Source of the DNA: Acetobacteraceae bacterium
GTDB lineage: Bacteria; Pseudomonadota; Alphaproteobacteria; Acetobacterales; Acetobacteraceae
NCBI GenBank assembly: GCA_025055335.1
Contig: JANWXJ010000255.1
Location: forward strand, 1-57,196
Direction of reading: 5' to 3'
DNA: 57,196 nt
The notes under the pieces are model-generated. The model was given only the letters and a program-made list of their open reading frames with translations. It was not told the DNA's origin and did not search any database. Made by a program: the position numbers and the translations under genes. Shown piece by piece: positions 21,490 to 37,369 of this stretch (positions within the stretch are counted from its first letter, which is position 1; every line of letters starts with the position of its first letter).

Positions 21490-22138
21490 CACGCTCGGGC
21501 TCATCCTCGCCGGCGGCCTCGCCCGGCGCATGGGCGGGGGCGACAAGCCGCTGCGCGAGGCAGGCGGGCGGCCGCTGCTTGCGCATCTGATCGAGCGCCT
21601 CGCGCCGCAGGTGAACGGGCTGCTGCTGAATGCGAACGGCGACCCCGCCCGGTTTTCCGCCTTCGGCCTGCCGGTCGCGCCGGACGGCATCGCGGGCTTC
21701 CCGGGGCCGCTCGCCGGGGTGCTGGCGGGGCTGGATTGGGCGGCCGCCCACCGGCCCGACTGCCCCTGGGTCGTCTCCTGCCCAGGCGACACCCCCTTCC
21801 CGCCCGCCGACCTTGTGGCGCGCCTCCACGCCGCGCGCGAAGCGGCGGGCGTGCCGCTGGCCTGCGCGGCCTCGGGCGGGCAGACGCATCCGCCGGTCGG
21901 CCTGTGGCCGGTCGCGCTGCGCGAGGCGCTGCGCGCGGCCCTGCTGGCGGGCGAGCGGAAGATCGACCGCTGGACCGCCGCGCATGGCTGCGCCGTGGCG
22001 GAATGGCCCGCCGCGCCCACCGATCCGTTCTTCAACGCGAACACGCCCGAGGATGTCGCGGAAGCATCCCGCATCTTGCAAGCGGCGGGGAATCCGGGCG
22101 AAATCCGGCCATCCGAACCGGGAGGAGTTGCGCCATGA
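21479..22138 (+). CDS. mobA: Molybdenum cofactor guanylyltransferase
   Basis: [19 protein letters not shown]-terminus and DTPF motif. ATG 21479 overlaps the fdhD 3' end by 11 nt. The upstream part of track ORF 21371.. is junk. Confidence 0.88.
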
Positions 22139-22314: not shown

Positions 22315-23562
22315 CTACAGCACCGCCTCGAACGGCAGCACCCGCAGCGGGTCGCCCGGCGCGACGGCGGTGGCGGTCTCCGGCAACTCGGCGAAGCCGT
22401 CGGTCTCGGTGAGCGAGGTCAGCAGCCCCGCCCCCTCCCGCCCGAACTTGCGGGCGACCAGCCCAGCTCCACTCTCCGCCAGCGACACACGCACATATTC
22501 CCGCCGCCCAGCCTTCTTGCGGTAGGCGAAATCCGCCACCGCCGGCACCCGCAGCAGGGGCTTCGCCCGCGCCCCGGCCAGCCGCAGCAGGAGCGGCCGC
22601 GCAAGATGCAGGAAGGTTACGAAGGCTGCCACCGGATTGCCCGGCAGCCCGACCACCGGCACGCCGCGCACCACCCCCATCGCAGCAGGCCGCCCTGGCT
22701 TCACCGCGAGCCGCCAGAACACCAGCCGCCCGCCGGCCTCGATCGCGGCGCGGACATGGTCCTCCTCGCCGGTCGAGACTCCCCCGGTCGTCAGCAGCAG
22801 ATCGTGGCCGGCGGCGGCCTCGGCCAGCGCCGCGGCCGTCCTGTCCCGCCGGTCCGGCAGGATGCCGAGATCCCGCGCCTCGGCGGGCAGGCGAGTCAGC
22901 AGGGCGAGCAGCGCGAAGCGGTTGGCGTCGTAGGTCTGCGCCGGGCCGAGCGGCGCGCCGGGCGAGGCAAGCTCGTCCCCGGTCGAGAACACCCCGACAC
23001 GCACCCGGCGGCTCACCGGCAGCGCCGGCAGCCCGAGCGCCGCGGCGAGGCCGATCTCCGCCGGGCCGAGAACGGTGCCCGCCGCCAGCGCCACCGCCCC
23101 GCGCGCCACGTCCTCCCCGGCCGGCCGGCAGTTGGCGCCGCGCTTCAGCCCGGGCGGCAGGATCACGGCATCCCCCTCGGTCCGCACATCCTCCTGCATC
23201 ATCACCGTGTCGGCGCCCTCCGGCATCGGCGCACCGGTGAACACCCGCATGGCCGAACCGCGCGGGAGGGCTGGCGGCACCGCCCCGGCCGGGGCGCGGC
23301 CGATGACGGGCAGCCGCGTCTCGGCATCCGGTGAGAGGTCGGCGTGGCGGATGGCGTAGCCATCCACCGCGCTGTTGAAGAAGGGCGGCAGCGGCAGCGG
23401 CGCGACGAGATCCGCGGCCAGCACCCGCCCGCGCGCGGCGGCGAGCGGCACCGTCTCGACGCCCCCGAGAGGCGGCACGCGCTCGGCGATCAGCGCCGCC
23501 GCCGCCTCCACCGACAGCAGCGGGCCGCCGAAGGCGAAACAGTCGTCGGAAAGCTGCGCCAT
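22315..23562 (-). CDS. moeA: Molybdopterin molybdotransferase
   Basis: 415-aa full-length MoeA pattern (SAVDGYAIR, FTGAPMPEGADTV, TTGGVSTGEEDH, PGNPVAA). Confidence 0.9.
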   Translation of the reverse strand: MAQLSDDCFAFGGPLLSVEAAAALIAERVPPLGGVETVPLAAARGRVLAADLVAPLPLPPFFNSAVDGYAIRHADLSPDAETRLPVIGRAPAGAVPPALPRGSAMRVFTGAPMPEGADTVMMQEDVRTEGDAVILPPGLKRGANCRPAGEDVARGAVALAAGTVLGPAEIGLAAALGLPALPVSRRVRVGVFSTGDELASPGAPLGPAQTYDANRFALLALLTRLPAEARDLGILPDRRDRTAAALAEAAAGHDLLLTTGGVSTGEEDHVRAAIEAGGRLVFWRLAVKPGRPAAMGVVRGVPVVGLPGNPVAAFVTFLHLARPLLLRLAGARAKPLLRVPAVADFAYRKKAGRREYVRVSLAESGAGLVARKFGREGAGLLTSLTETDGFAELPETATAVAPGDPLRVLPFEAVL

Positions 23563-24104
23563 CAGGCCGACGCCGGCAGCAGCACAGACAGCGGCACGGC
23601 GTGGCGCAGCACGAGGTCGGCGACGCCCTCGATGTCGTCCAGCGCGACATGAGGCAGGTCGCAGGGCGGCGGCACGTCGGCGGCGATGCCGCGCACCAGC
23701 GGATCCTCCGGGAAGCGCCAGGGCTTGCCGTTGGCCGCGCGGTGGATCTCGATCTTCGGGATCGGCTCGCGCTTGAAGCCCTCGACCAGGATGAGATCCA
23801 CCGGATCGAGCCGCGCCAGCATCTCGGCCAGAGTCGGCTCCGGCGCGCCGCGCAGTTCCGTCAGCAGCGCCCAGCGCAGGGCGGAGCCGACGAGCACCTG
23901 CCGGGCGCCGGCGTGCCGGTGCTCGTAGGAGTCCTTGCCGGGGGTGTCGAGGTCGAAGGCGTGGTGCGCATGCTTGATGGTGGAAACGGAAATCCCCCGC
24001 CCGGCCAGGCAGGGGATCAGCCGCTTCACCAGGGTGGTCTTGCCGGCGCCGCTCCAGCCGGCAAGACCGATCACGCGCGTCCCGCCCGTCCTGCGGGCGT
24101 TCAT
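23562..24104 (-). CDS. mobB: Molybdopterin-guanine dinucleotide biosynthesis adapter protein
   Basis: GWSGAGKTTL Walker A, STIKHAHH, LVEGFK. 1-nt TGATG overlap with the moeA start. Confidence 0.9.
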   Translation of the reverse strand: MNARRTGGTRVIGLAGWSGAGKTTLVKRLIPCLAGRGISVSTIKHAHHAFDLDTPGKDSYEHRHAGARQVLVGSALRWALLTELRGAPEPTLAEMLARLDPVDLILVEGFKREPIPKIEIHRAANGKPWRFPEDPLVRGIAADVPPPCDLPHVALDDIEGVADLVLRHAVPLSVLLPASA

Positions 24105-24114
24105 GGCGGCAGGC

Positions 24115-25125
24115 TCAGTCTCCCGCCGCCGCCGCGCCGGCGGGCGGCGCCGAGACGCGGCCGCGCGCCATCTCCTGCTCCACCCACAGGGCGTGGTGCT
24201 CCTTCGCCCAGTTCAGGTCCACCTGGCCGGAACCCATGGCGTCGAAGGCGCCCTCCATGCCGATGGAGCCGATGTAGATGTGGGCCATGATGGCGGCGAT
24301 CATCAGCACCGACAGCAGCCCGTGGACCATATGCGCGAGCTGCTGCCCGGCGATGTCGGTGAAGGCGAAGGGGAACACCAGGATGTAGCCCGAGACCGCG
24401 ACCGCCGCACCGCCCAGCACCGTCAGCCAGAACACCATCTTCTGGCCGCCGTTGAAGCGGCCAGCGGGCGGCGGATGCGCGCCCTTGCCGATCAGGCCGC
24501 CGCCCGCCTTGAACCAGGCGATGTCGCGGCCGTTCGGGATGTTGTCCTTCGCCCAGAGCAGGAACATCAGCACGATGCCGAGCGTGAAGGGGAAGGCGAG
24601 GAAGTTGTGCGCGATCTTGCCCCACAGCGAGAGCGTCGCGAACGCCTCCGGCCCGATCAGCGGCAGGATGAGGAAGCGCCCGAAGGTGAGATTGAGTCCC
24701 GACAGCGCCAGGATGACGAAGGTGGAGGCCGTCATCCAGTGCACGCTGCGGTCGAGCAGGTTGAACCGTTCGATCGTGCGGCCCGACGGCCCGCCCTCGA
24801 TCGGGATGCGCCCGCGCGTCATGTAGAACAGCGCCAGCACCGCGAGCACGCCGAGGATGGCGATGCCGCCCACCCAGGTGAGCGTGGTGTTGTGGAAGTC
24901 CCGCCAGGACTGGCCGGCGGGCTGGATCAGGTTGGCCGCCCGCTCGTCCGGGATGGTGACGCGGCCGGCGATGCGCCCGCCGGTCAGCATCTGCTGCATC
25001 TCGAGCTCGAGCGCACGCGGCGGCACCGGCGCAGGATTGGCAGGCGTACCGACGACGTTCTGCGCCGAGGCCGGCGCCGCGGCGAGGAACGCCGCGGCGA
25101 ACAGGGCAAGGAGGAGGCGGCTCAC
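24115..25125 (-). CDS. Formate dehydrogenase gamma subunit (cytochrome b, membrane anchor)
   Basis: Signal/anchor segment, then four TM helices with conserved His residues (RSVHWMT, KIAHNFL, HMVHGL, MAHIYIG). GTGA overlap with the beta-subunit stop. Confidence 0.85.
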   Translation of the reverse strand: MSRLLLALFAAAFLAAAPASAQNVVGTPANPAPVPPRALELEMQQMLTGGRIAGRVTIPDERAANLIQPAGQSWRDFHNTTLTWVGGIAILGVLAVLALFYMTRGRIPIEGGPSGRTIERFNLLDRSVHWMTASTFVILALSGLNLTFGRFLILPLIGPEAFATLSLWGKIAHNFLAFPFTLGIVLMFLLWAKDNIPNGRDIAWFKAGGGLIGKGAHPPPAGRFNGGQKMVFWLTVLGGAAVAVSGYILVFPFAFTDIAGQQLAHMVHGLLSVLMIAAIMAHIYIGSIGMEGAFDAMGSGQVDLNWAKEHHALWVEQEMARGRVSAPPAGAAAAGD

Positions 25126-25718
25126 GACTGCACCTCAAGGCGATAGGCGGTGCGCCAGCCCCAGGCGCCGGAACCGTAGCCGCGCTGCTGCACGCGCTCG
25201 CGGTAGATCTGCGCGATGATCTGCCCGTCGCCGGCCAGAAGCGCCTTGGTCGAGCACATCTCGGCGCAGAGCGGCAGCTTGCCTTCGGCGAGCCGGTTCG
25301 AGCCGTACTGCGCGTATTCGGCCGCCGTGTTGTCCTGCTGCGGGCCGCCGGCGCAGTAGGTGCACTTGTCCATCTTGCCGCGGCCGCCGAAGTTGCCGAC
25401 GCGCGGATACTGCGGCGCGCCGAAGGGGCAGGCGTAGAAGCAGTAGCCGCAGCCGATGCAGGTGTCCTTGTCGTGCAGCACCACGGCGTCCGCCGTGGTG
25501 TAGAAGCACGACGTCGGGCACACCGCCGCGCAGGGCGCATCCGTGCAGTGCATGCACGCCATCGAGATCGAGCGCTCGCCCGGCTTGCCGTCGTTGATCG
25601 TCACGACGCGCCGGCGGTTGATGCCCCAGGGCACCTCGTGCTCGTTCTTGCAGGCGGTGACGCAGGCGTTGCACTCGATGCAGCGCTCGGCGTCGCAGAG
25701 GAACATCATGCGGGCCAT
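25122..25718 (-). CDS. Formate dehydrogenase beta subunit (four [4Fe-4S] clusters)
   Basis: CIECNACVTACK, CMHCTDAPCAAVCP, CIGCGYCFYACP, CTYC...CAEMC. 198 aa. GGAGGA SD. Confidence 0.9.
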   Translation of the reverse strand: MARMMFLCDAERCIECNACVTACKNEHEVPWGINRRRVVTINDGKPGERSISMACMHCTDAPCAAVCPTSCFYTTADAVVLHDKDTCIGCGYCFYACPFGAPQYPRVGNFGGRGKMDKCTYCAGGPQQDNTAAEYAQYGSNRLAEGKLPLCAEMCSTKALLAGDGQIIAQIYRERVQQRGYGSGAWGWRTAYRLEVQS

Positions 25719-25736: not shown

Positions 25737-28679
25737 TCAGGCCGCGCGGATCTGGCAGAGCGTGACCTTCGTCTCCTGCATGAAGGTCACGGGGTCGTAG
25801 CCGTAGGTGGTGACGGCGTTCACGCTCTCGCCGAGGACGATCGGGTCGGTGCCCTGCGGGTACTTGCGCCGCTGGTCCTCCTGCATGAACCAGCCGGCGA
25901 AGTGGAAGGGCATCCAGGCCACGCCGCGGCCGACGCGTTCCGTCACCAGCGCCTTCACGCGCACCCACTTGTCGCGCGGCATCTCGGGGCCCTGCACCAG
26001 CACCCAGGCGCCGTCGCGGATGTTGCGCGCCGCGGCGTCGGCCGGGTTGATCTCGATGAACATGTCCTGCTGCAGTTCCGCAAGCCACTTGTTGGACCGC
26101 GTCTCCTCGCCGCCGCCCTCGTATTCCACGAGCCGCCCGGAGGAGAGGATGATCGGGTAGTCGCGCGCGATGTTGCGCTCGATCGCCCGCTGCTGCACCG
26201 AGACGCCGAGATGCGGCAGGCGGAAGGCCCGCCGGTCGGGCAGCGTCGGATACTGCGCCACCAGGTCGGTGCGCGGGGTGTAGATCGGCTCGCGGTGCAC
26301 CGGCACCGGATCGGGCAGGTTCCACGCCACCGCGCGGGCCTTGGCGTTGCCGTAGGCCATCACCCCGTGCTCCATCGTCACGCGGATGATGCCCATCGAG
26401 AGGTCGGTGGCCCAGGAGACGTTGCCGCCGATCCGCTCGATCACCTCGCGCTCGGCCGGCGTCAGCTCCTGGTCCCAGCCGAGCCGGCGCATCACTTCCA
26501 TGGTGAACTCCGGATAGCCGGTGGTGAGCTCGGAGCCGCGGCTCGCGGAGCCGTCCGCCAGCAGCGACACGCCGTTGCGCTCGACCCCGAAGCGGGCGCG
26601 GAAGGTGCCGCCGCCCTCCTTCACGTGCAGCGCCGTGTTGTAGAGGATGTGCGTGCCGGGATGCCGCCATTCCGGCTTGCCCCAGCACGGCCAGGGCAGG
26701 CCGTAGTAGTCGCCCCGCACCTCGGGCGGCGCGTCGGGGCCGGCGCGCAGCGTCGTCAGGTCGAAGTGCTGCTGGTTCGCCATGTGCGCCTTCAGGCGCT
26801 CCGGCGAGATACCCGAGTAGCCCGAGGCGATGGCGCCGCGGTTGATCTCGCGCAGGATGCTCTCCGGCGTGGGCTCGCCGTTCACGATCTCGAAGTTCTT
26901 GAACATGTCCGCCTGGAAGCGGATCGGCATGTTCCGCCGCTCGGCGGCGCGATCGAGCGCGCCGGCAAGCTGGTAGATCGCGTAGTAGTCGCTCTTCGAT
27001 TCGAAGATCGGCTCGACGATCTTCGAGCCCCACTGTACCGAGCGGTTGGACGCGGTGCGGCTGCCCGAGCACTCGAACTGTGTGCAGATCGGCAAGAGGT
27101 AGGTGTTCTCCCGCCGGTTGTGCAGCACCGCGAAGGTGGTGGGGTGCGGGTCCGCCACCACCAGGAGATCCAGCGCCTCCAGGCCGCGCACCGCCTCCGG
27201 CATGCGGGTGATGGTGTTGCCGCCGTGGCCGAACACGATCATCGCCTTCAGCCGGTCGCGCTGGGCAAGCCCGGTCTGCGGGTTCACCTCGGCGGTCGCG
27301 GCGTCGAAGTAGCGCGTCGAGGGGATGCCCGGCATGGTCATGAACTGCGGGCTCTCGAACCGCGCGACCATGCTCTCGTAGGAGACGCCCCACACGCGGC
27401 TCCAGTGCCGCCACGCCGTCTCGTCGATGCCGTAGTAGGCCGGCAGGTTCGCCACATCCAGGCCGAAGTCGGTCGCGCCCTGCACGTTGCAGTGGCCGCG
27501 GAAGATGTTGGCGCCGTTGCCGGGGCCCCCGACATTGCCGGTGGCGAGCAGCAGCACGGAGAAGGCCCGCACATTGGCGGTGCCGACCGTCTTCTGGGTG
27601 GCACCCATGCACCACACAAGGGTGGCCGGCTTCTCGGTGGCGAACTTGCGCGCCACCTCGCGCAGCTGCGCCCCGGGCACGCCCGTCACGCGCTCCACCT
27701 CGGCCGGGTTCCACTTCGCCACCTCGGCGCGGATCTCGTCCATGCCGAACACGCGCTGGCGGATGAACTCCCGGTCCTCCCAGCCATTCTCGAAGATGTG
27801 CCAGAGGATGCCCCAGGTCAGCGGGATGTCGGTGCCGGGGCGGAAGCGGATGTAGTCGGTCGCGTGCGCCGCCGTGCGGGTGAAGCGCGGGTCGGCGACG
27901 ATGACGTTGGCGCGGTTCTTCTCCTTGCCCGACAGGATGTGCTGCAGCGACACCGGGTGCGCCTCGGCGGCGTTGCTGCCGATGAACAGCACCGTCTTGG
28001 CGTTGCGGATGTCGTTGTAGGAGTTGGTCTGCGCGCCGTAGCCCCAGGTGTTCGCCACGCCCGCCACGGTGGTGGAGTGGCAGATGCGCGCCTGGTGGTC
28101 CACGCTGTTGGTGCCCCAGAAGGCCGCCAGCTTGCGGAACAGGTAGGCGCCCTCGTTGGAGAACTTGGCGCTGCCGAGGAAATACACCGACTCAGGGCCG
28201 GAGGCCGCGCGCACCGCCATCATGCGGTCGGCGATCTCGTTCAGCGCGGTCTCCCAGCTGATGCGCTGCCAGCGCCCGCCGGCCAGCTTCATCGGGTAGC
28301 GCAGCCGCCGGTCGCCGTGCACCAGTTCGCGCACCGAGGCGCCCTTGGCGCAATGCGTGCCGCGGTTGATCGGGCTCTCCCACGCGGGCTCCTGACCCAC
28401 CCACACGCCGTTCTGCACCTCGGCGATCACGGTGCAGCCGACCGAACAGTGGGTGCAGATGTTCTTGATCCGCTGCACCGGCGCCGCGTGGTTCACCGGC
28501 CCTGCTTCGGCCTGGCGCGCCACCGTCAGCGGCATGGCGCCGAGCGCGGCGAGCCCGGTGGCCCCGAGCCCGGCGTTGCGCAGGAAGGCACGGCGGTCGA
28601 GCCCGCCGGACGAGAGGCCCTGATAGACGGATGCGAGGCGGGCCTTCGCCGCGATCCGGTCGCTGCGCTTGATCAGCAT
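25737..28679 (-). CDS. Formate dehydrogenase alpha subunit, Tat-exported molybdopterin enzyme, Cys-type
   Basis: Twin-arginine signal (DRRAFLRNAGLGATGLAALGA). N-terminal FeS motif CTHCSVGC. ARICHSTTVAG at the position that holds selenocysteine in E. coli FdnG. Uninterrupted 980-aa ORF. GGAGGA SD. Confidence 0.92.
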   Translation of the reverse strand: MLIKRSDRIAAKARLASVYQGLSSGGLDRRAFLRNAGLGATGLAALGAMPLTVARQAEAGPVNHAAPVQRIKNICTHCSVGCTVIAEVQNGVWVGQEPAWESPINRGTHCAKGASVRELVHGDRRLRYPMKLAGGRWQRISWETALNEIADRMMAVRAASGPESVYFLGSAKFSNEGAYLFRKLAAFWGTNSVDHQARICHSTTVAGVANTWGYGAQTNSYNDIRNAKTVLFIGSNAAEAHPVSLQHILSGKEKNRANVIVADPRFTRTAAHATDYIRFRPGTDIPLTWGILWHIFENGWEDREFIRQRVFGMDEIRAEVAKWNPAEVERVTGVPGAQLREVARKFATEKPATLVWCMGATQKTVGTANVRAFSVLLLATGNVGGPGNGANIFRGHCNVQGATDFGLDVANLPAYYGIDETAWRHWSRVWGVSYESMVARFESPQFMTMPGIPSTRYFDAATAEVNPQTGLAQRDRLKAMIVFGHGGNTITRMPEAVRGLEALDLLVVADPHPTTFAVLHNRRENTYLLPICTQFECSGSRTASNRSVQWGSKIVEPIFESKSDYYAIYQLAGALDRAAERRNMPIRFQADMFKNFEIVNGEPTPESILREINRGAIASGYSGISPERLKAHMANQQHFDLTTLRAGPDAPPEVRGDYYGLPWPCWGKPEWRHPGTHILYNTALHVKEGGGTFRARFGVERNGVSLLADGSASRGSELTTGYPEFTMEVMRRLGWDQELTPAEREVIERIGGNVSWATDLSMGIIRVTMEHGVMAYGNAKARAVAWNLPDPVPVHREPIYTPRTDLVAQYPTLPDRRAFRLPHLGVSVQQRAIERNIARDYPIILSSGRLVEYEGGGEETRSNKWLAELQQDMFIEINPADAAARNIRDGAWVLVQGPEMPRDKWVRVKALVTERVGRGVAWMPFHFAGWFMQEDQRRKYPQGTDPIVLGESVNAVTTYGYDPVTFMQETKVTLCQIRAA

Positions 28680-28697
28680 CTTGGTTCCTCCCCGGTC

Positions 28698-28913
28698 TCA
28701 GCCGCCGCGATTGGTGCGGTAGAAGGCCTGCACATGCGGCGAGTTCGGCTGGTAGCGCGCGGCGGTGCGCTCCTGCGCGTTCTCCTTGCGGGCCGGCGGG
28801 CTGGTCTGCGCCGCGGCCGGCGCGACCGCCGCGGCCGCCATGCCGACGCCGAGCCCCAGCGCCTTCAGGAAGCCCCGCCGCTCCTCGCGCCCCGTCTCGT
28901 TCTTCTCGCTCAT
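28698..28913 (-). CDS. Small Tat-signal protein of formate dehydrogenase regions (about 71 aa)
   Basis: MSEKNETGREERRGFLKALGLGVGMAAAAVAPAAAQ..., with a predicted mature part of only about 36 aa. ATG 28913 has GGGAG 8 nt upstream. The track start at 28928 is a GTG inside that SD. Confidence 0.75.
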   Translation of the reverse strand: MSEKNETGREERRGFLKALGLGVGMAAAAVAPAAAQTSPPARKENAQERTAARYQPNSPHVQAFYRTNRGG

Positions 28914-28937: not shown

Positions 28938-29543
28938 TCAGGCCGGCAGCTCCGCCGCCGCCGACTCGATCTCCACCGCCAGCCGCCCGAGCCGGCCGAC
29001 CGCGCGGTAGAACCGCGCCGATTCGGCCGCCTCCAGGTCGGCGAAGAACCGCCCGGCCCATGGCTTCATGTGCCGCGCGAAGAAGGCGCCGGCCTCCGCC
29101 GGCAGCGCCGGGAAGGCGCCCGCCAGCAGCCCGGCGAAGGTCTCGCAGACGAAGGCGATGTGGTCCTCGGGCTCCGAGACGCCGGGTGCGCGCTCGATGC
29201 CGAGCCGCGCCAGATCCCCCCGCAGGTCGGCCAGCGGCCGCTCGTGCAGGAAGCCCGTCAGGTAGTAGGAGGCGAAGGGCAGCAGCTCGCCGCGCCCCAC
29301 ACCGATGAACAGGTCGAAGAACTCGCGGTCGGCGGACTCGGGGTCGGTCGCGCGGGCCGCCTCGGCCAGGGCGGCGAAGGCCTCGCCGAGCGGCCCGCCG
29401 CCGCCGAGCGCGCCGAGCCTCCCGAGCAGCCCGGCATCCGGCGGGCCGGCCAGCAGGCGGCCGAGAAGGGCGAACAGGCGCGCGCGCTCAAGGTCGAGCG
29501 GGTCGACACGCCGTCCTTCCGCAGCCGCAAGCGGGACGTTCAT
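28938..29543 (-). CDS. TorD/DmsD-family redox enzyme maturation chaperone
   Basis: 201 aa. FDLFIGVGRGELLPFASYYLTGFL...PEDHIAFVCETFAGL is the TorD-family core. GGAGGG SD 8 nt upstream. Confidence 0.8.
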   Translation of the reverse strand: MNVPLAAAEGRRVDPLDLERARLFALLGRLLAGPPDAGLLGRLGALGGGGPLGEAFAALAEAARATDPESADREFFDLFIGVGRGELLPFASYYLTGFLHERPLADLRGDLARLGIERAPGVSEPEDHIAFVCETFAGLLAGAFPALPAEAGAFFARHMKPWAGRFFADLEAAESARFYRAVGRLGRLAVEIESAAAELPA

Positions 29544-29652
29544 CGCCCCTGCCCTCCGTCCCCGTCGTTAGCGCCCGGCACCGGCCCTGGCCCCAGCGTA
29601 ATCCTCTCCGGGTATACCAAAGCCCGACGCTCGGCTTTCCGCAAGCCCCAAG

Positions 29653-30297
29653 TCATGCCGGCAGGGCGGAGCCGTGGCGGCGGCGCGGCATCGGCGTGGC
29701 GGCGGGTTGTTGGGGGGCGGATTCCGGGGCGGCTTCGGCCGGGGGGACAGGCGCGGCGTCCGGCGGCAGGAAGGCGGGCGGCGGCGTCTCCGGCGGGATC
29801 GCTGCGGCCTGCTGCGGCGCGCCGGGCGCCTCCGCGGCGGTCGGCGCGGCAGTCGCCGCGGCGGCGGCGCGCTCCGCCTGGTCCTGCTCCTCCCGGTCCA
29901 CCCCAAGCAGGCGCCTTGCCAGCGCCTTCGCCTCCTCCGGCAGGTCGAAGCCGAAGCCGGGCACGCCGTCGGGGGCGTTGAAGTCCCAGGCGTAGTCGGC
30001 GGGGCCGACGAAGTCGCGGATCGCCGGGTCGAGGCTCCAGATCCGGCTGAGCGCCGCCTGGCGCAGCGCTGCGGGCACGCCCTTGGCGAAGAACGGGCGG
30101 AGGTCCGATTCGGCGGTCAGGTCCTCGATCTTCGGCAGGGAGGAGAGGTCGAACTCCGGCTCCTCCGCCGCGGCGGGCGGCGTCTCCGGCGGGGGCGGTG
30201 GCGGCACGGCCGGCTCCGGCGTCTTCCCGGCCTCGGCCGCGCGCTTCCGGCGGGACCAGCGGGCAAGGAACCCTTCGCGCTCGCCCTCGCCGCTCAT
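29653..30297 (-). CDS. Uncharacterised protein, DUF3306-like
   Basis: Last 214 aa of track ORF 29653..30735. Basic N-terminus (GFLARWSRRKRA), conserved core (LPKIEDLTAESDLRPFFAKGVPAALRQAALSRIWSLDPAIRDFVGPADYAWDFN), Pro/Ala-rich tail. The family name is from memory of FDH-neighbourhood annotation. Confidence 0.7.
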   Translation of the reverse strand: MSGEGEREGFLARWSRRKRAAEAGKTPEPAVPPPPPPETPPAAAEEPEFDLSSLPKIEDLTAESDLRPFFAKGVPAALRQAALSRIWSLDPAIRDFVGPADYAWDFNAPDGVPGFGFDLPEEAKALARRLLGVDREEQDQAERAAAAATAAPTAAEAPGAPQQAAAIPPETPPPAFLPPDAAPVPPAEAAPESAPQQPAATPMPRRRHGSALPA

Positions 30298-30815
30298 TCC
30301 GCCTCCTCCGCCCAGCGCGGCCGACGCTGCGCCAGCGCCTCCGGATCCGCCCGGTCGCGCTTGCGCTTGTGGAACACCCGCTCCTTGTGGTGGCGCGCGA
30401 CATACTCCTCGAGCAAGGCAACAAGCGGGGGCGGCAGCGGCAGCGGCTCCACGAGGTCGGAGGGCGATTCGCCGTAGATCTCGGCCTCGCCGGCGTCCAC
30501 CGTCACCGCCTGCAGCTTCCACCCGGCCGGCGCGGACGGATCCGGCCGCAGCACCACCCACAGGAGCGGCGGTTCCTGCTGCAGGGTGTGGCGGTAGTTG
30601 TCGGTGTCGGTCGGGAAGAGCGCGATCTCCGCCGCCCCGGCGTAGAACAGCGCGGCGTCCCTTTCCTCCCGCAGCAGCGTCCAGGGCTCGGCCTCTGGCA
30701 GGTCGAGCAGCACGGCGACGGGGCGCCAGACCCATTCCGCCCAGGGTGTCGCGCCGCGGCGGCGTTCCACCACCACGCCGACCGGCACGCGCACGCTCTC
30801 CGGATGCGCCGTCAT
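30294..30815 (-). CDS. Uncharacterised protein, DUF3305-like
   Basis: 173 aa, starting MTAHPESVRVPVGVVVERRR...WVWRPVAVL. ATGA overlaps at both ends. The family name is from memory. Confidence 0.7.
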   Translation of the reverse strand: MTAHPESVRVPVGVVVERRRGATPWAEWVWRPVAVLLDLPEAEPWTLLREERDAALFYAGAAEIALFPTDTDNYRHTLQQEPPLLWVVLRPDPSAPAGWKLQAVTVDAGEAEIYGESPSDLVEPLPLPPPLVALLEEYVARHHKERVFHKRKRDRADPEALAQRRPRWAEEAE

Positions 30816-31840
30816 GCCGCCTCCTCCGCCGCCAGGAGCGGCAGCCCGGCGAGCAGGTTCTGCGGCTTCATGCGCACGCGCCTCGCCCCGTCCATCGCCA
30901 GCGCCAGATGCACGGGCAGCCCCCGCATGCGCGGCAGCACGCGCGAGGGATCGGCGAAGTCGAGCCGCGCGAGCCAGATCAGCCGCGCCAGACGCTCCTG
31001 CGCCACCTTCTTCCCCCGCCACAAATCGTTGGCGATCGCCGTCGCCTCCGCATCCAGCCCGACATGCCAGTGCCAGTTCTGGATCGTCTCGACCGGCGTG
31101 ACGGTCACCTCCTCCCCCAGCATGTGCTTGAGGAAGCGGGCGATGGCGGTGCCGAGGGCGATCTGCCCCGGGCTGTCCTTCACGATGTCGAGCGCGAAGT
31201 CGTGCGCGTCGGAGCGGCCGCGGTAGAGGTGGGCGTTGCCCTCGTTCAGCACATCGAGCTCCACCTCGCGCGGCGGGGCGCCCGCCTCCACCAGCAGCTG
31301 CCCGAGCGCGCCGAGGCCGCCGTCTTCCGCCCGCGCCTCGATCGTCTCCTCGTCGGCCAGAAGCAGGCTGCCCTGGTGGATGCCCACGCGCTGGGTGCGG
31401 AAGAACACCTCGCCCGCGCGCAGCACGAAGGGATCGCCTTCTCCGTCGAGGGCGGCGCGCATCACGAGATGCGTCAGCATCTGCAGGAAGATCGGCGGGA
31501 TCCCTGAAACCCCCTCGCGGAACAGCGCGGCATAGGCGGCCTCCAGGGTGGGGTGGCGCGCCACCCTGTCGCGGAAGGCAAGGAAATGCCGCCAGTTCTC
31601 CCGCGCCGCGGGATCAGCGAGCGCGGCCGGATCGGCCGGGGCGAGCGGATTCTCCATCAGCCGCGCATGCAGCGCGCGCTCGGCCTCGCAGGCCTCCTCG
31701 GGCGGCAGCAGCTCGGGCCGAGCAAGGAAGGCGCGCCAGAGATCGGGGGTTGGCACCACCCGCCCCGACTCGTCGCGGTCGCACAGCAGATGGCCGGAGG
31801 CGACCCAGAACTCGCTTGGCATCAGGGATGCGCCGCTCAT
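30812..31840 (-). CDS. Uncharacterised 342-aa protein (possibly DUF6352 family)
   Basis: Last 342 aa of track ORF 30812..32302, with balanced composition (FWVASGHLLCDRDESGRVVPTPDLWRAF...TIQNWHWHVGLDAEATAIANDLWRGKK). ATGA overlaps at both ends. No motif I can assign. Confidence 0.7.
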   Translation of the reverse strand: MSGASLMPSEFWVASGHLLCDRDESGRVVPTPDLWRAFLARPELLPPEEACEAERALHARLMENPLAPADPAALADPAARENWRHFLAFRDRVARHPTLEAAYAALFREGVSGIPPIFLQMLTHLVMRAALDGEGDPFVLRAGEVFFRTQRVGIHQGSLLLADEETIEARAEDGGLGALGQLLVEAGAPPREVELDVLNEGNAHLYRGRSDAHDFALDIVKDSPGQIALGTAIARFLKHMLGEEVTVTPVETIQNWHWHVGLDAEATAIANDLWRGKKVAQERLARLIWLARLDFADPSRVLPRMRGLPVHLALAMDGARRVRMKPQNLLAGLPLLAAEEAA

Positions 31841-32379
31841 CGCGGAAGCCTCGTGAGGTCGGGGCGTTCCACCGGCTCCTCCTCGCCCGCCACCTGCACG
31901 ATGCCGAACACCGGCAGGCGGCCGAAATCGTGGTGCGGCGTCTCGCGCCGGTGCAGCGTGCGGAAGCGCTCGCGCACCCGCCCCTCCTCCAGGCTGCGGG
32001 AAAGCGCCAGCACCGTCCCGGGCGGATGGCCTTCGCACAGGCTTTCGGCGAAGGCCACCTCCTCCTCGGCGGCGGGGCGGGCGGCGGCCTCGTCGGGCGC
32101 GCCATAGGCCGCGACGAGATGGGCGGCAAGCGAAGCCACCGCCGCCTCGCGCTCGGCGGCGGTGGCCTCCGCCACCTCGACGAGGGTGGACCAACCGAAG
32201 GAGGAGAGCCCGAGGAACCCCGCCCGGAACGCCTGCCGCCGCTTGCCCGGCATCGCCTCGGGCGATTCGTCCCAGAAGGCGAAACCGCCGGGCACGGCCC
32301 ATTCCCCGGGCTCGGCGGCGCGCTCGAACACGATGCTGTCCGACGGATCGAGCCGGATGGTGCGCGGCAGCAGCGGCAT
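31837..32379 (-). CDS. Uncharacterised 180-aa protein (possibly DUF6505 family)
   Basis: MPLLPRTIRLDPSDSIVFERAAEPGEWAVPGGFAFWDE... The start shares 1 nt with the upstream stop (TGATG at 32377-32381). ATGA overlap downstream. Confidence 0.68.
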   Translation of the reverse strand: MPLLPRTIRLDPSDSIVFERAAEPGEWAVPGGFAFWDESPEAMPGKRRQAFRAGFLGLSSFGWSTLVEVAEATAAEREAAVASLAAHLVAAYGAPDEAAARPAAEEEVAFAESLCEGHPPGTVLALSRSLEEGRVRERFRTLHRRETPHHDFGRLPVFGIVQVAGEEEPVERPDLTRLPR

Positions 32380-33077
32380 CAGGCGGAGTCCTTCAGGGGC
32401 ACGGTGCGGCGCGTGCCGCCCTCCTCCAGCACGAGGTCGAAGGTGACGGGATCGAGCCCCCGCCGCGCCTCGCCCATCCACGGCTCGCGCAGAAGGCGCG
32501 GCAGCACCCGCTCGGCCAGCCGCCTGTGCCCCCTCTCCTGCCAGTCCGACAGCACGGCCATCAGGTGCCGCGCCCAGGCGGCGACGATCTCGGCGGGCGG
32601 CACGTCGAACCCCTCGCCCTCGAGGGTGGTGCGCTCCGGCATCTCCCCCGGCTCGACGCCGCGCAGCACGGCGTAGCGGCACTCGAGGCCGAGCACGAGC
32701 CACTCCGGCACCGCATCCTCCGCGGCCCCCTCGGGCGAGACGAGCCTGAGCCGCCCGACCTCCCCCGCGTTCACGAGAAGCGTCGCCGGCCAGCGGATCT
32801 CGACCGGCAGCTCGGCCGGCCCGAGTGCGGCGAAGGCATCGGCCAGCGCCGCCGCACCGGCCAGCAGCACGGGGCGTGCGGCGCTGAGCGGCTGTTCCGG
32901 CTCCAGCACCACCGCGGCCTCGACGCGGGCAAGCGAGCGCACCCAGAACAGCGCCCCCGCCCCGGCGCGCGGCGCCTCGGCCACGGCGCGGGCCAGCGCG
33001 TCCTGGCCCTCGCGCAGCGCCTCCGGGCGGAACAGGGTGGGCAACGGGGGCAGCCCGTCATCCAGTCTGGTCGGCAT
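32379..33077 (-). CDS. Biotin/lipoate-protein-ligase-like domain protein, probably non-catalytic
   Basis: 232 aa. VEIRWPATLLVNAGEVGRLRL resembles, by eye, the BirA segment KWPNDLYLQDRKLAGILVE, but has Glu/Val where the catalytic Lys sits. The protein has a single Lys near its C-terminus. First gene of the minus-strand string. Confidence 0.6.
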   Translation of the reverse strand: MPTRLDDGLPPLPTLFRPEALREGQDALARAVAEAPRAGAGALFWVRSLARVEAAVVLEPEQPLSAARPVLLAGAAALADAFAALGPAELPVEIRWPATLLVNAGEVGRLRLVSPEGAAEDAVPEWLVLGLECRYAVLRGVEPGEMPERTTLEGEGFDVPPAEIVAAWARHLMAVLSDWQERGHRRLAERVLPRLLREPWMGEARRGLDPVTFDLVLEEGGTRRTVPLKDSA

Positions 33078-33168
33078 CCTCGGTCCCGGCCCTTCCCCCC
33101 CGTTCGCCGCCCCCGCATATAGCGCGCGCCGCCGGGGTTGCAGAGGGATGACGGCGGCGGGGGGAGCC

Positions 33169-35226
33169 ATGGCCGAGCGACTGATCTTCGTCTGTTCCTG
33201 CGAGGACAGCATGGCCCCCGACGCCGCGGCGATCGGCAAGGCCTGCGGGGCGGAGGCGCGGGGGGCCGACCAGCTCTGCCGCCGCCAGCTCGACCGCTTC
33301 CTCGCCGCGCTGCAGGAGGCCCCGCCCGCGATCACCGTCGCCTGCCGCCAGGAAGCGCCCCTGTTCGCGCAGGAGGCCGAGGCGGCGGGATACGCGGGCG
33401 CCCTCTCCTTCGCCGACATCCGCGAATCGGCCGGCTGGTCGGACGAGAGCGCCAAGGCGGGCCCGAAGATGGCGGCGCTCGTGGCCGCCGCCGCCGTGCC
33501 GATGCCGCCCACCCCGCTGGTCAGCCTGGAAAGCAAGGGGGTGGCGCTGCTGCTCGGCCGCGACGGGGTGGTGCTCGCGGCGGCCGTGGCGCTGAAGGAC
33601 CGGCTCGACATCACCGTGCTGCTGACCGGCGCCGAGCCGGTCGCGCCGCTTCGGCGCGCCGAATACCCGGTGATGCGCGGGCGGGTCCGCGCCGCCACCG
33701 GCTGGCTCGGCGCCTTCGAGGCGGTGGTGGACGGTTTCGCCGCCCCCGCCCCCTCCTCGCGCGCGCAGTATGTGTGGGGCCCGGCCAAGGACGGGGCGAG
33801 AAGCCGCGCCGACCTGATCCTCGACCTGTCCGGCGGCGCGCCGCTGTTCCCGGCGCATGAACTCCGCCAGGGCTACCTCCGTGCCGACCCGGCCGACGCC
33901 GCCGCGGTGGAACGCGCGATCCGCGCCGCCGCCGACCTGACGGGCGTGTTCGACAAGCCGCGCTTCGTGCAGTTCGACGCCGGCCTCTGCGCCCATGCGC
34001 GCAACCGCAAGGTGGGCTGCAGCCGCTGCCTCGATCTCTGCCCGACCGGCGCCATCACCCCGCCCGACGGCAGGACGGTGAAGGACCATGTGCTGATCTC
34101 GGCCGAGATCTGCGCGGGCTGCGGCGCCTGCGCCGCCGTCTGCCCGACGGGGGCCGCCACCTACACCCTGCCGCCGGCCGAAGCCGTGCTGAAGCGCCTG
34201 CGCGCCCTGCTGCTCACCTACCGCGAGGCCGGCGGGCGCGACCCCGTGCTGCTGCTGCACGACCAGCGGCACGGCGAGGCGCTGATCGACGCGCTCGCCC
34301 GCCATGGCGACGGCCTGCCCGCCCGCGCGCTGCCCTTCGCGCTGAACGAGGTGACGCAGGCCGACCTGTCGCTGTTCGCCGCCGCCTTCGCCTATGGCGC
34401 CTCGGCGGTGCGGGTGCTCGGCCGCGGGCGCCGCGCCGAGGGGTGGGAGGGGGTGGCGCGCAACATGGAGATCGCGAACGCGGTTCTCGCCGGCCTCGGG
34501 CTTGCGGGGCCGGCGCCGCACACAGCCGCGATCGAGACGGAGGATCCCTTCACCCTCGGCGAGGCGCTGCGGGCCATCCCCGCCATGCCGTTGGCCTTCG
34601 CGCCCGCCACCTTCCTGCCGCTGGGCCGCCCGCGCGAGATGACGCTCGCCGCCTTCCGCGCGCTGCGCGAGGCGGCGCGCGCCCCGGCCGCCGCCATCGC
34701 CCTGCCCGAGAAGGCCCCCTTCGGCCGCGCGCGGGTGGACACGGAAGGCTGCACGCTTTGCCTCTCCTGCACGATGGTCTGCCCGACGGGCGCCTTCGCC
34801 GCCAACCCCGACCGGCCGCAACTGTCGTTCCTCGAGGATGCCTGCGTGCAGTGCGGCCTCTGCGCAGTCACCTGCCCGGAGAAGGTGATCACGCTGGAGC
34901 CGCGCCTCAATCTCGCGCCAGAGGCGTCGCAGCGTGCCGTGGTGAAGGAGGAGGAGCCCTGGTGCTGCCCGCGCTGCGGCAAGGCCTTCGGGATGAAATC
35001 CTCGATCGAGCGGGTGAAGGCGAAGCTGACGGCCAGCGGCCACTGGATGTTCGCCGACCCGAAGCGCCTTGCCGTGCTCGAGCTCTGCGAGGATTGCCGG
35101 GTGGTGGAGGCGACGGTGGGCGGGATAGACCCCTTCGCCGGCCCGCCCCGCCCGCTGGTGAAGACGACGGAGGACTACCTGCGCGAGGCCGAGCGGGCGA
35201 AGCGGCGGGAAGAGGGCGGCGGCTGA
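33169..35226 (+). CDS. Large polyferredoxin-like 4Fe-4S binding protein (685 aa)
   Basis: Motifs CSRCLDLCP, CAGCGACAAVCP, CTLCLSCTMVCP and CVQCGLCAVTCP. N-terminal FVCSCEDS. C-terminal CCPRCG...CEDC ribbon-like pair. ATG 33169 is preceded by GGGGGA (alternative ATG 33148). Confidence 0.8.
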   Translation: MAERLIFVCSCEDSMAPDAAAIGKACGAEARGADQLCRRQLDRFLAALQEAPPAITVACRQEAPLFAQEAEAAGYAGALSFADIRESAGWSDESAKAGPKMAALVAAAAVPMPPTPLVSLESKGVALLLGRDGVVLAAAVALKDRLDITVLLTGAEPVAPLRRAEYPVMRGRVRAATGWLGAFEAVVDGFAAPAPSSRAQYVWGPAKDGARSRADLILDLSGGAPLFPAHELRQGYLRADPADAAAVERAIRAAADLTGVFDKPRFVQFDAGLCAHARNRKVGCSRCLDLCPTGAITPPDGRTVKDHVLISAEICAGCGACAAVCPTGAATYTLPPAEAVLKRLRALLLTYREAGGRDPVLLLHDQRHGEALIDALARHGDGLPARALPFALNEVTQADLSLFAAAFAYGASAVRVLGRGRRAEGWEGVARNMEIANAVLAGLGLAGPAPHTAAIETEDPFTLGEALRAIPAMPLAFAPATFLPLGRPREMTLAAFRALREAARAPAAAIALPEKAPFGRARVDTEGCTLCLSCTMVCPTGAFAANPDRPQLSFLEDACVQCGLCAVTCPEKVITLEPRLNLAPEASQRAVVKEEEPWCCPRCGKAFGMKSSIERVKAKLTASGHWMFADPKRLAVLELCEDCRVVEATVGGIDPFAGPPRPLVKTTEDYLREAERAKRREEGGG

Positions 35227-36084
35227 GTGCGCGGCCGGCTCGACTGCGACACGCTGCTGCTGCGCGCCTTCGTGGCGGTGGCCGAGAGCGGCTCCTTCAC
35301 CCGCGCGGCCGAGCGGATCGGGCGCAGCCAGCCCGCCGTGACGCTGCAGATCAAGCGCCTCGAGGAGCTTCTCGGGCGGCCGCTGATCGCGCGCTCCTCC
35401 CGCCACGTCGCGCTCACGGCGGCGGGCGAGATCCTGCTGCCGGCGGCGCGCGCGGCGATCGCCGCGCTCGACCAGGCCGCGGGCCGCCTCGCCGGCGGCG
35501 AGATCGGGGGCGAACTCCGCTTCGGCAGCCCCGAGGATTTCGCCACCGCCTATCTGCCGGCCATCCTGGCCCGCTTCGTCGCCGCCCATCCCGGGGTGGT
35601 GCTGCGCACGAACTGCGAACTGACGCGGCCGCTGATCGAGGGGCTCTCGCGCGGCGCCTATGACCTTGTCGTGATCAAGCAGGCGCCGGGGCAGGCGGTG
35701 GCCGGGGCGCGCGAGATCCGACGCGAAACCCTCGTCTGGGCGGAAGCCGAGGGGTGGGGCCGCCCGCGCGCCGCGCCCCTCGATCTGGTGCTGTCGCCCG
35801 AACCCTGCGTGTACCGGGAACGCGCGATCGCCGCGCTGGACGCGGCCGGGATCCCCTGGCGCGTGGTCTACACCTCGCCCTCGCTCGCCGGCGCGGCGGC
35901 GGCGGTGCGCGCGGGCCTCGGCATCACCGTGCTGCCGCGGCGCATCCTGCCGGCAGGCCTCGTGCCGGCCGCCGATCCGGCGCTGCCGCCGCTTGCCGAC
36001 ACCGCGATCTGCCTCCTGCTCCGCCCCGGCGCGCCGGCCGCCGCCGAGGAACTCGCCGCCGAGATCGCCGCCGCCCTCGGCTGA
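35227..36084 (+). CDS. LysR-family transcriptional regulator
   Basis: LLRAFVAVAESGSFTRAAERIGRSQPAVTLQIKRLEE HTH followed by a LysR substrate-binding domain. The GTG start immediately follows the TGA of the polyferredoxin gene. Confidence 0.88.
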   Translation: MRGRLDCDTLLLRAFVAVAESGSFTRAAERIGRSQPAVTLQIKRLEELLGRPLIARSSRHVALTAAGEILLPAARAAIAALDQAAGRLAGGEIGGELRFGSPEDFATAYLPAILARFVAAHPGVVLRTNCELTRPLIEGLSRGAYDLVVIKQAPGQAVAGAREIRRETLVWAEAEGWGRPRAAPLDLVLSPEPCVYRERAIAALDAAGIPWRVVYTSPSLAGAAAAVRAGLGITVLPRRILPAGLVPAADPALPPLADTAICLLLRPGAPAAAEELAAEIAAALG

Positions 36085-36400
36085 AAGGCGAAGCGGGCAC
36101 GGCCGCCCCGGCGCCCGACCGTCCCGCAGGGCAGGGACGGGCGCGGAAGCACGGCCGCAGCCTGTCCGACCGGGGGTGATCGCCTCGCCCCGGGAAGGGG
36201 CCCATTGGCCGCGCTTATGGCCGGAGCGGCGCTTTCTCATTTCCGCTCCGCCGCGGCCGCTGGCAGAGCGCCGGCGATGACGCTCCGCCACGCCAGACGA
36301 CGACGCCGCGCCTGAGCCGGAGGCGTCCCTCCACCCCTCCCCCGTCCCAACCACCCGATCGCCGATGCGGGCGCCCGGCCCGCCGGAAAGGAATGCCGCC

Positions 36401-37369
36401 GTGAACGGACTGGATCTGCTGATCACCAACCTGCTCTCGCCGATCGTGCTCGCCTTCCTGCTCGGCACGCTCGCAGGCTTCCTCCGGAGCGAGCTCGAGC
36501 TGCCCGAACCCGTGCTCAAGCTGATCTCGATCTACCTGTTGTTCTCGATCGGGCTGACGGGCGGGCGCGAGCTTGCCCATGCCGAAGGCGCAACCCTCGG
36601 GCCGCTGATCGGCGTGACCGTGCTGCTGACGGTGGCGCTGCCCGTCGTCACCTTCCTCGTGCTGCGCCGGCTCGGGGGCTTCGATGCGGCGAACGCCGCA
36701 GCGGTCGCGGCGCATTACGGCTCGGTCTCCTCCGTCACCTTCTTCGCCGCCCTCGCCTTCGCGCGCAGCGTGGAGGCGGCGCCGCAGGCGCCGATGGCGG
36801 CCGTGGTCGCCATCATGGAATGGGCGGTGATCATCTCGCTGCTGCTCGCCCGGCTCTCGATGGGGAAGGGCAACGGCAGGGGCCTGCAGGCGGTGCTGAT
36901 GGACACGCTGCGCGGGCGGGGCATCCTGCTGCTGACGGGGGGGATGCTGATCGGCGCGCTCGCCACCGACTCGCAGTGGCGGCAGATCGCGCCGTTCTAC
37001 GAGGGGCTGTTCCGCGGGATGCTCATGCTGTTCCTGCTCGAGATGGGCATGACGGCGGCGCGCCAGGTGCGGGACTTCGCCAAGGTTGGCGTGTTCCTCA
37101 CCGGCTTCGCGGTGGCCGCACCGGTGTGCTTCGGGCTGGCCGGGCTGCTTGCCGGACACATGATCGGGCTCGACAAGGGCAGCGCCTTCGTGCTGGCCGC
37201 CGTCTGCGCCTCCTCCTCCTACATCGACGCGCCGGCGGCCTGCCGGGCGGCGCTGCCGGAGGCGAGCCCGGGGATCTACCTCACGGCCTCGCTCGGCATC
37301 ACCTTCCCGTTCAACCTGCTGGCCGGCCTGCCGCTCTACTGGGCGGCGGCGGGGTGGCTGTACGGCTGA
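36401..37369 (+). CDS. SbtA-like sodium-dependent bicarbonate transporter family permease
   Basis: Polytopic, about 10 TM. LLSPIVLAFLLGTLAGFLRSELELPEPVLKLISIYLLFSIGLTGG and AAHYGSVSSVTF resemble the Sbt_1 family. GTG 36401 has AAGGAA 7 nt upstream (alternative ATG 36365). Confidence 0.72.
   Translation: MNGLDLLITNLLSPIVLAFLLGTLAGFLRSELELPEPVLKLISIYLLFSIGLTGGRELAHAEGATLGPLIGVTVLLTVALPVVTFLVLRRLGGFDAANAAAVAAHYGSVSSVTFFAALAFARSVEAAPQAPMAAVVAIMEWAVIISLLLARLSMGKGNGRGLQAVLMDTLRGRGILLLTGGMLIGALATDSQWRQIAPFYEGLFRGMLMLFLLEMGMTAARQVRDFAKVGVFLTGFAVAAPVCFGLAGLLAGHMIGLDKGSAFVLAAVCASSSYIDAPAACRAALPEASPGIYLTASLGITFPFNLLAGLPLYWAAAGWLYG

Follow-up and report, generated by a model that had tools for sequence, protein, structure and literature searches.

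Five overlapping genes beside an FDH3-type formate dehydrogenase of an Acetobacteraceae bacterium: a possible modular kit for enzyme biogenesis

The five genes and their products

A contig of an Acetobacteraceae bacterium (GenBank assembly GCA_025055335.1, contig JANWXJ010000255.1; all 57,196 nucleotides were analysed and are referred to as the window) carries on its minus strand five consecutive open reading frames (ORFs), genes 1 to 5. They are followed in the same direction by the genes of a formate dehydrogenase (FDH) with a twin-arginine translocation (Tat) signal, and are faced by a gene for a polyferredoxin (Table 1). A reading made from the letters of this DNA alone (the sequence-only reading) had described five coding-like ORFs of 232, 180, 342, 173 and 214 aa with stop/start overlaps at all four junctions. 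Both points were borne out, since coordinates, G+C content at third codon positions (GC3) and Pfam matches agreed and the junction sequences read as described. The window has a G+C content of 73%, and long chance ORFs are frequent on every strand. The five ORFs nevertheless show this genome's coding signature, with a GC3 of 0.90-0.94 and a second-position G+C content of 0.47-0.62; because of this signature and of Pfam matches far above the cut-offs, genes 1 to 5 were taken to be real genes and not chance ORFs. The Pfam search returned DUF3305 and DUF3306 for the last two genes, as had been suspected from their appearance, and DUF6505 and DUF6352 for the middle two, which had been held to be recently numbered domains of unknown function (DUFs).

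Table 1. Features of the window, with coordinates, strand and supporting evidence
Feature	Position	Strand	Size, sequence or evidence
Gene 1, BirA-like biotin/lipoate-ligase-fold protein	32379-33077	minus	232 aa; PF16917 (BPL_LplA_LipB_2), E 7e-46
Gene 2, DUF6505	31837-32379	minus	180 aa; PF20115, E 4e-62, 208.9 bits (gathering threshold 23.9)
Gene 3, DUF6352	30812-31840	minus	342 aa; PF19879, E 1e-60, 205.7 bits (gathering threshold 25)
Gene 4, DUF3305	30294-30815	minus	173 aa; PF11749, E 3e-36, 125 bits (gathering threshold 25)
Gene 5, DUF3306	29653-30297	minus	214 aa; PF11748, E 3e-19, 70.5 bits (gathering threshold 25)
Gene 1/gene 2 junction	32377-32381	minus	TGATG, gene 2 start over gene 1 stop
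Gene 2/gene 3 junction	31837-31840	minus	ATGA
Gene 3/gene 4 junction	30812-30815	minus	ATGA
Gene 4/gene 5 junction	30294-30297	minus	ATGA
Putative shared divergent promoter region	33078-33147	both	conservation, AT-rich box
Invariant CTATAT-type box	33114-33126	minus	
Polyferredoxin, cytoplasmic	33148-35226	plus	685-692 aa; Fer4 domain matches
LysR-family regulator, then SbtA-like bicarbonate transporter	35227-37369 region	plus	PF05982 (transporter)
Spacer between gene 5 and TorD-like gene	29544-29652	minus	109 nt
Conserved block in spacer	29611-29649	minus	CTTGCR-N17-(C/G)TTTG(G/A)
TorD/DmsD-type redox enzyme maturation protein (Tat proofreading chaperone)	28938-29543	minus	PF02613, E 4e-29; weak TorD and DmsD NCBIfam matches
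Small Tat-signal protein of FDH regions	28698-28913	minus	71 aa; TIGR01409 above cut-off; RRGFLK motif
FdhA, catalytic Mo/W-bis-molybdopterin guanine dinucleotide (bisMGD) subunit	25737-28679	minus	molybdopterin domains; Tat motif RRAFLR; ARICHSTTV, Cys200
FDH3 beta subunit (Fe-S)	25122-25718	minus	NF038355, 332 bits (cut-off 240); 18 Cys
FDH gamma subunit (membrane cytochrome b)	24115-25125	minus	TIGR01583, 164 bits (cut-off 116); PF01292
MobB	23562-24104	minus	Pfam
MoeA	22315-23562	minus	Pfam
MobA	21479-22138	plus	TIGR02665, 214 bits; N-terminal half of NF011058
FdhD sulfurtransferase	20491-21489	plus	PF02634, E 1e-75
Thiamine pyrophosphate (TPP) riboswitch	9442-9544	plus	RF00059, 73 bits, full-length

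All five proteins are acidic (isoelectric points 4.7-5.5) and soluble and contain 0-2 cysteines each. A sequence scan revealed no signal peptide and no membrane helix in any of them, which supports the cytoplasmic location presumed earlier. Neither a P-loop nor a CxxC motif was present in the five proteins, and no cysteine was conserved in the gene 1 and DUF6352 families, the two that were aligned broadly. According to Pfam and NCBIfam, none of the five belongs to the NarJ/TorD, NapD, NapF, FdhD or FdhE families; the NarJ/TorD/DmsD domain PF02613 was matched by the adjoining TorD-like gene and by none of the five. The sequence-only reading had named neither a signal peptide nor a catalytic motif in any of the five; gene 1, however, carries a recognisable biotin/lipoate-ligase fold.

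A profile of the gene 1 family, built from 16 diverse orthologues, matched PDB entry 3BFM, a 'biotin protein ligase-like protein of unknown function' (E 5e-44), and residues 168-304 of Escherichia coli BirA (E 1.7e-5). Gene 1 shares with both the fold of the BPL/LplA/LipB catalytic domain and the SH3-like C-terminal domain; 3BFM has no assigned function of its own. Unlike BirA, gene 1 has no DNA-binding domain and lacks the catalytic lysine: BirA K183 aligned with a variable column, occupied by E105 in gene 1 of the window (HMMER alignment to 1BIA), and no lysine was invariant among the 16 members. The GRGRxGR biotin/ATP loop was likewise absent from the family alignment, the match to BirA beginning at residue 168, past this loop. 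No biotinyl or lipoyl acceptor protein was found among the Pfam-scanned neighbours in the window or among the annotated loci, both searches covering gene neighbourhoods. Since the K183 column is variable, no lysine is invariant and the loop is missing, gene 1 is, as judged from its alignment, a ligase fold without ligase chemistry and presumably catalytically dead.

The AlphaFold2 model of the DUF6352 protein (gene 3) reached a predicted local distance difference test score (pLDDT) of 87 and a predicted template modelling score (pTM) of 0.86. A Foldseek comparison of this model with the PDB gave nothing significant (best E 0.26), the family profile matched no PDB sequence, and a lax Pfam scan with 40 members revealed no weak relatives. 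Invariant, mainly charged residues of the family include E43, E54, R141, E144, R148, Q150, D163 and N328. The DUF3305 protein (gene 4) was modelled with a pLDDT of 88 as a beta-rich core with a basic C-terminal tail; its model had no significant Foldseek match in the PDB, and a sequence-profile match was not found there either. As modelled, DUF6352 and DUF3305 are two folds without a PDB match. The DUF3306 protein (gene 5) consists mostly of low-complexity Pro/Ala-rich linkers joining three short pieces conserved in 24 orthologues, namely an N-terminal basic FLxRWSRRKR motif, a central block and a C-terminal RRHGxALP motif.

Conservation of linkage and overlaps

A scan for DUF6352 in one genome per species matched at least 588 species. 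Judged by its DUF6352 relatives, the organism of the window belongs to the Acetobacteraceae, close to Roseomonas and Falsiroseomonas. Loci were mapped by tblastn and a simple heuristic GC3-based gene caller, followed by protein clustering, and the start nearest the upstream stop was taken as the start codon at each junction. Fifty-four loci, all anchored on DUF6352, had enough flanking DNA to be informative. The full arrangement, i.e. a divergent gene for a polyferredoxin of approximately 690 aa, the five genes in the same order, TorD and FdhA, was present in 30 of them. Two further loci (e.g. L006) contained the polyferredoxin gene and the five genes with no FDH within 10 kb, and another two contained the ligase-like, DUF6505 and DUF6352 genes only. 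In 34 of the 38 loci having the ligase-like gene, TorD and/or FdhA lay within 10 kb.

The overlaps were likewise conserved, in approximately 40 other species. Overlaps of 4 nt or 1 nt were observed at the gene 1/gene 2 junction in 42/51 loci, at the gene 2/gene 3 junction in 42/53, at the gene 3/gene 4 junction in 28/45 and at the gene 4/gene 5 junction in 36/50, where the other 14 loci also overlap or abut. The relative reading frame at the junctions was kept in approximately 73-85% of loci, versus one third expected by chance. Unlike neighbours within the five-gene set, DUF3306 and TorD were separated by more than 30 nt in 24/27 loci. The gene order and the overlaps are retained in several orders of Alphaproteobacteria and in some contigs labelled Burkholderiales. 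The same organisation, including the LysR gene listed in Table 1, was found in three close relatives with independent gene calls and Pfam labels. Two loci from metagenome-assembled genomes, labelled Archangium gephyra (L052) and uncultured Enterobacteriaceae (L070), matched Phreatobacter and Burkholderiales loci, respectively, both in organisation and in the DUF6352 tree, and are probably mis-binned.

The divergent polyferredoxin was the most constant partner of the string, being present in 35 of the 38 loci with a ligase-like gene; the sequence-only reading had not mentioned it. It contains two 2x[4Fe-4S] domains and 26 cysteines, with an N-terminal CxC and a C-terminal CCxxC...CxxC motif, and gene calls of 684-685 aa in relatives favour the second ATG, at 33169, as its start. 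The protein was not recognised as a NapF-type ferredoxin (TIGR00402, 32.7 bits versus a cut-off of 102.2), and only generic 2x[4Fe-4S] domains matched. The 70-90 nt separating its gene from gene 1 were 82% identical in the three close relatives, whose proteins are approximately 85-87% identical, and include the invariant box GCGCTATATGCGGG. In 33/35 loci, this region contained an AT-rich and mostly TATA-like run, 5 nt or longer. Because of the intergenic conservation, the invariant box and the AT-rich run, the region is probably a shared divergent promoter.

A LysR-family regulator gene lies directly 3' of the polyferredoxin gene, a pairing kept in the three close relatives, and is followed by a gene for an SbtA-like bicarbonate transporter, which could be linked to the CO2/bicarbonate arising from formate oxidation.

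Lineage variants and gene fusions

The five genes did not always remain together. Inserts of approximately 1-8 kb separated DUF6352 from DUF3305 in six loci (L015, L016, L022, L028, L043 and L079). In four others (L037, L044, L053 and L066), DUF3305 and DUF3306 were found with TorD/FdhA on the strand opposite DUF6352, and in L054 DUF3306 alone was placed in this way. On Roseobacter plasmids from three genera, an operon of the order polyferredoxin-DUF6494-Mrp/NBP35-ligase-like-DUF6505 faces the genes DUF3305-DUF3306-TorD-small Tat protein-FdhABC, and DUF6352 is absent from these plasmids. Azospirillum brasilense has the order ligase-like-DUF3305-DUF3306-TorD-FDH3, with DUF6505, DUF6352 and the polyferredoxin missing in cis; in separate genomes of other Azospirillum species, DUF6352 was located among housekeeping genes.

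Fusions involving these families were also observed. The metagenomic proteins P0311 and P0360 are single chains in which DUF6352 is joined to the polyferredoxin's C-terminal part. The NCBIfam family NF011058 ('MobA, DUF3305 domain-containing') is a curated MobA-DUF3305 fusion; gene 4 aligned to its positions 214-371, and gene 4 and the MobA of the window map to adjacent halves of the model. A further metagenomic protein of 403 aa (P0323) comprises a DUF6352 part (3-206) and a DUF3305 part (315-384), and is either a true fusion or a frameshifted gene call.

A gene of the Mrp/NBP35 family recurred in six loci from two orders (L085, 8327-9397; L088, 7841-8890; L089, 13877-14941; L036; L042; L058). 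It is located inside the ligase-like/DUF6505 operon on the Roseobacter plasmids and beside FdhD in three Hyphomicrobiales loci, and no such gene was found near the cluster of the window. Replacement of DUF6352 by Mrp/NBP35, to which the Roseobacter plasmids had pointed, was rejected as a strict rule, both being present in L036, L042 and L058. The neighbourhoods also hold FdhD, MobA, MobB and MoeA, together with putative molybdate/tungstate-type ABC transporter genes assigned by annotation and sequence.

Two other genes recurred in related loci and are absent from the window. One, present in 32 loci (e.g. L002, 7299-8549), encodes a fusion of WD40 repeats and a c-type cytochrome with an N-terminal hydrophobic leader; this protein is probably periplasmic and possibly an electron acceptor of FDH3. 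The other encodes the 68-aa protein DUF6494 and was present in 17 loci (e.g. L016, 11054-11257).

The formate dehydrogenase genes and the spacer

The enzyme of the window was classed as FDH3-type on the basis of beta and gamma subunits matching equivalog families and of an alpha subunit with a Tat signal and molybdopterin domains. The small Tat-signal protein scored 36.6 bits for TIGR02811, under the cut-off of 48.45. Its ORF, which together with the stretch separating it from fdhA spans 28680-28913 (minus strand), is in the same frame as fdhA, with a TGA and 18 nt between the two, and both have a twin-arginine motif. Joining of the two by read-through or selenocysteine insertion was rejected, as fdhA has its own ribosome-binding site, start codon, twin-arginine motif and active-site cysteine.

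The sequence-only reading had the string running on through the TorD-like gene as far as moeA. The downstream genes are indeed as it stated, but a gap of 109 nt precedes the TorD-like gene, and because of this gap it is only plausible that the five genes head the FDH operon. The spacer contains a conserved block just past the DUF3306 stop codon. Its spacing is fixed in the three close relatives, whereas the remainder of the spacer differs among them in length and sequence. The block is a possible internal promoter of the TorD-FDH genes; given its conservation with fixed spacing, these genes may have their own promoter in addition to read-through from upstream. No terminator-like site was seen in the spacer, the scans for sigma-70 promoters and terminators being uninformative in GC-rich sequence. 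A molybdenum cofactor (Moco) riboswitch was found neither in the spacer nor upstream of gene 1. Of the Rfam families, only the TPP riboswitch matched above threshold in the window; it is located just upstream of an ABC-transporter-ATPase-like gene (approximately 9531) and is unrelated to the FDH locus.

Discussion

The five genes are proposed to form a modular cytoplasmic biogenesis kit for FDH3, consisting of two separable sub-modules; the probability of this reading is put at roughly one half. The five soluble, non-redox proteins would act in the biogenesis of the Tat-exported, quinone-linked FDH3 before its export. The maturation role, the division of tasks and the physical contacts are all suggested by gene linkage, by the fusions and by the absence of catalytic and redox motifs. 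A role in maturing the Tat-exported Mo/W enzyme had already been put forward in the sequence-only reading, and the strong linkage to FDH3 and the conserved overlaps speak for that part of it; the obligate complex in which it cast the five proteins found no support.

The boundaries between the sub-modules are drawn from the rearrangements, i.e. the inserts, the strand switches and the Roseobacter operons. Sub-module A would comprise DUF3305 and DUF3306, which travel with the TorD-type chaperone, and might help to pass W/Mo-bisMGD from MobA to the chaperone-bound apo-FdhA, thereby assisting in insertion of the cofactor and in proofreading. As DUF3305 takes the position of MobB C-terminal to MobA, it is suggested to be an adaptor in bisMGD synthesis or delivery. 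DUF3306 could be a flexible tether that binds through short motifs at its two ends and in its middle. Sub-module B would consist of the dead ligase-fold protein, DUF6505 and DUF6352, partnered by the polyferredoxin and in some lineages also by Mrp/NBP35; before FdhA and FdhB are exported by the Tat system, it may load or check their Fe-S clusters, in a NapF-like manner. The location of Mrp/NBP35 within the ligase-like/DUF6505 operon and beside FdhD suggests that it belongs to the same pathway. A scaffold or adaptor function fits the proteins better than that of an enzyme or electron carrier, because they are soluble, acidic and poor in cysteine and because the ligase fold has no catalytic lysine. 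Electrical wiring of the enzyme by the five proteins, which had also been considered, does not agree with this scarcity of cysteines, none of which is conserved in the gene 1 or DUF6352 families.

Somewhat more speculative is the idea that these families and the polyferredoxin, joined in some lineages by Mrp/NBP35 and DUF6494, represent an undescribed dedicated assembly line in which the loading of Fe-S clusters is coupled with the insertion of bisMGD before export. Such an assembly line, for which we incline towards doubt, would be built from two folds without a PDB match and from a ligase fold reused as a scaffold.

Several alternatives were weighed. An obligate cytoplasmic assembly of all five proteins in fixed stoichiometry, devoted to the maturation of FDH as the sequence-only reading had it, is consistent with the overlaps at all four junctions, which are kept in most loci where the five genes have stayed side by side, and with the identical gene order in 30/54 loci. 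Translational coupling, however, indicates co-expression and not co-assembly, and membership of the set varies: the full arrangement was counted in those 30 of the 54 loci, and the Roseobacter, Azospirillum and Variovorax variants depart from it. DUF6352 is missing in roseobacters, DUF6505 and DUF6352 are missing in cis in Azospirillum brasilense, DUF6352 stands alone in 15/54 loci, and in several lineages the set splits cleanly between DUF6352 and DUF3305. An obligate complex is therefore considered improbable. The polyferredoxin, the ligase-like protein, DUF6505 and DUF6352 might instead constitute a separate cytoplasmic redox enzyme or electron-input module which is not an assembly factor and would be coupled to formate oxidation, e.g. 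in reductive activation of the enzyme or as a formate-linked reductase. The fusions of the polyferredoxin with DUF6352 do resemble architectures of an enzyme with its electron carrier, the invariant charged residues of DUF6352 could form an active site, and DUF6352 is also found away from FDH. Against such a module, no cofactor-binding or catalytic motif could be recognised, candidate substrate-handling genes did not recur, the polyferredoxin gene nearly always faces the operon leading into TorD-FDH, and the presence of Mrp/NBP35 and Moco genes in the same clusters points to assembly; we regard it as rather unlikely.

Only a small chance is given to the view that the five proteins are regulatory or quality-control neighbours, engaged in cofactor or metal sensing or in control of Tat targeting without direct insertion, or that their linkage is partly historical. 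The mostly disordered appearance of DUF3306, with its short motifs and an N-terminal SRRK-containing motif that is loosely twin-arginine-like, would suit this view. So would variable gene content, the separate occurrence of DUF6352 and of the DUF3305-DUF3306 pair, and the existence of FDH3 without any of these genes. Conservation of order and overlap over several orders would nevertheless be hard to keep without selection for a joint function, and the fusion of DUF3305 to MobA suggests a place in the cofactor pathway itself.

A number of observations weigh against the proposed biogenesis kit. A functionally coupled role outside maturation would lead to gene linkage just as well, and for four of the five proteins neither sequence nor structure resembles that of a functionally known protein. 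In the neighbourhood statistics that the sequence-only reading had called for, 15 of the 54 loci contain DUF6352 alone among unrelated housekeeping genes, judged from sequence to include ribF, purD, mutL, ribonucleotide reductase and accA. These lone copies form a clade in a distance tree, which also includes copies facing an FDH operon. Plasmid p4 of A. lipoferum carries the DUF3305-DUF3306 pair with no FDH nearby, and on a Variovorax plasmid neither TorD nor any of the five genes lies within 14 kb of FDH3; the five genes are therefore not universally required in cis. Mapping covered the 80 loci with the best scores, out of at least 588 species, and these lean towards Alphaproteobacteria. Protein searches of 72,556 plasmids spoke for the linkage, with nearly matching organism counts for the ligase-like protein (76 records), DUF3305 (87) and the FDH3 beta subunit (99), but many of these records are near-identical strains or near-duplicates.

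The proposed kit resembles the known maturation systems of Tat-exported molybdoenzymes (TorD/DmsD/NarJ; NapD and NapF; FdhD and FdhE) in that cytoplasmic proteins are encoded beside a Tat-exported Mo/W-bisMGD enzyme, and the locus itself includes a TorD-family chaperone and FdhD. It differs from them in that two of the five proteins have folds without a PDB match. NapF is a cytoplasmic ferredoxin thought to serve NapA, and the pairing of a cytoplasmic multi-[4Fe-4S] polyferredoxin with the five-gene system is reminiscent of this, although the polyferredoxin is approximately four times as long as NapF and scores far under the NapF cut-off. In the NCBIfam families of bifunctional MobA-MobB and MobA-DUF3305 proteins (NF011057/NF011058), DUF3305 occupies the place that MobB has in the sister models. 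In the window, by contrast, DUF3305 is free-standing and a separate MobB is also encoded; moreover, MobB is a P-loop protein, whereas the DUF3305 model is beta-rich. The Mrp/NBP35 family (ApbC, Nbp35, Ind1) is known as a carrier of [4Fe-4S] clusters. Its likeness to the present system lies in its gene positions in the Roseobacter operon and beside FdhD in three loci, and the difference is that the window's cluster has no such gene nearby and the five proteins have neither P-loop nor CxxC.

Bay et al. (2015; PMC4464133) found DUF3305/DUF3306 and a 4Fe-4S gene upstream of approximately 60% of DmsD-linked FDH (dmsD-fdhGHI) operons and termed DUF3305 and DUF3306 putative membrane proteins. No hydrophobic segment was present in either protein here, and the membrane label is not supported by these sequences. 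Neither the other three genes of the set (ligase-like, DUF6505 and DUF6352) nor the conserved overlaps and fusions are described in that paper. It was the only relevant publication retrieved in a search of a paper library, which gave nothing on the ligase-like, DUF6505 and DUF6352 genes in the context of FDH, on conserved coupling or on the fusions. The search also gave no functional description of the families, which RefSeq annotates as DUFs; this agrees with the earlier statement that no such complex was known to have been described. The proposed kit would extend a known kind of system, that of enzyme-specific maturation factors, and would not amount to a new kind of biology, the association of DUF3305/DUF3306 with FDH being already published.

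Research on CO2-reducing catalysts includes the periplasmic Mo/W formate dehydrogenases, which are hard to make in foreign hosts, in part because the full list of their maturation factors is not known. The accessory genes, a conserved set of five to seven that at least several hundred species possess, provide a concrete list of candidates for such factors. With its apparently dead biotin-ligase fold, its two folds without a solved relative and its fusions with MobA and the polyferredoxin, the set is also of interest for Tat proofreading and molybdoenzyme assembly.

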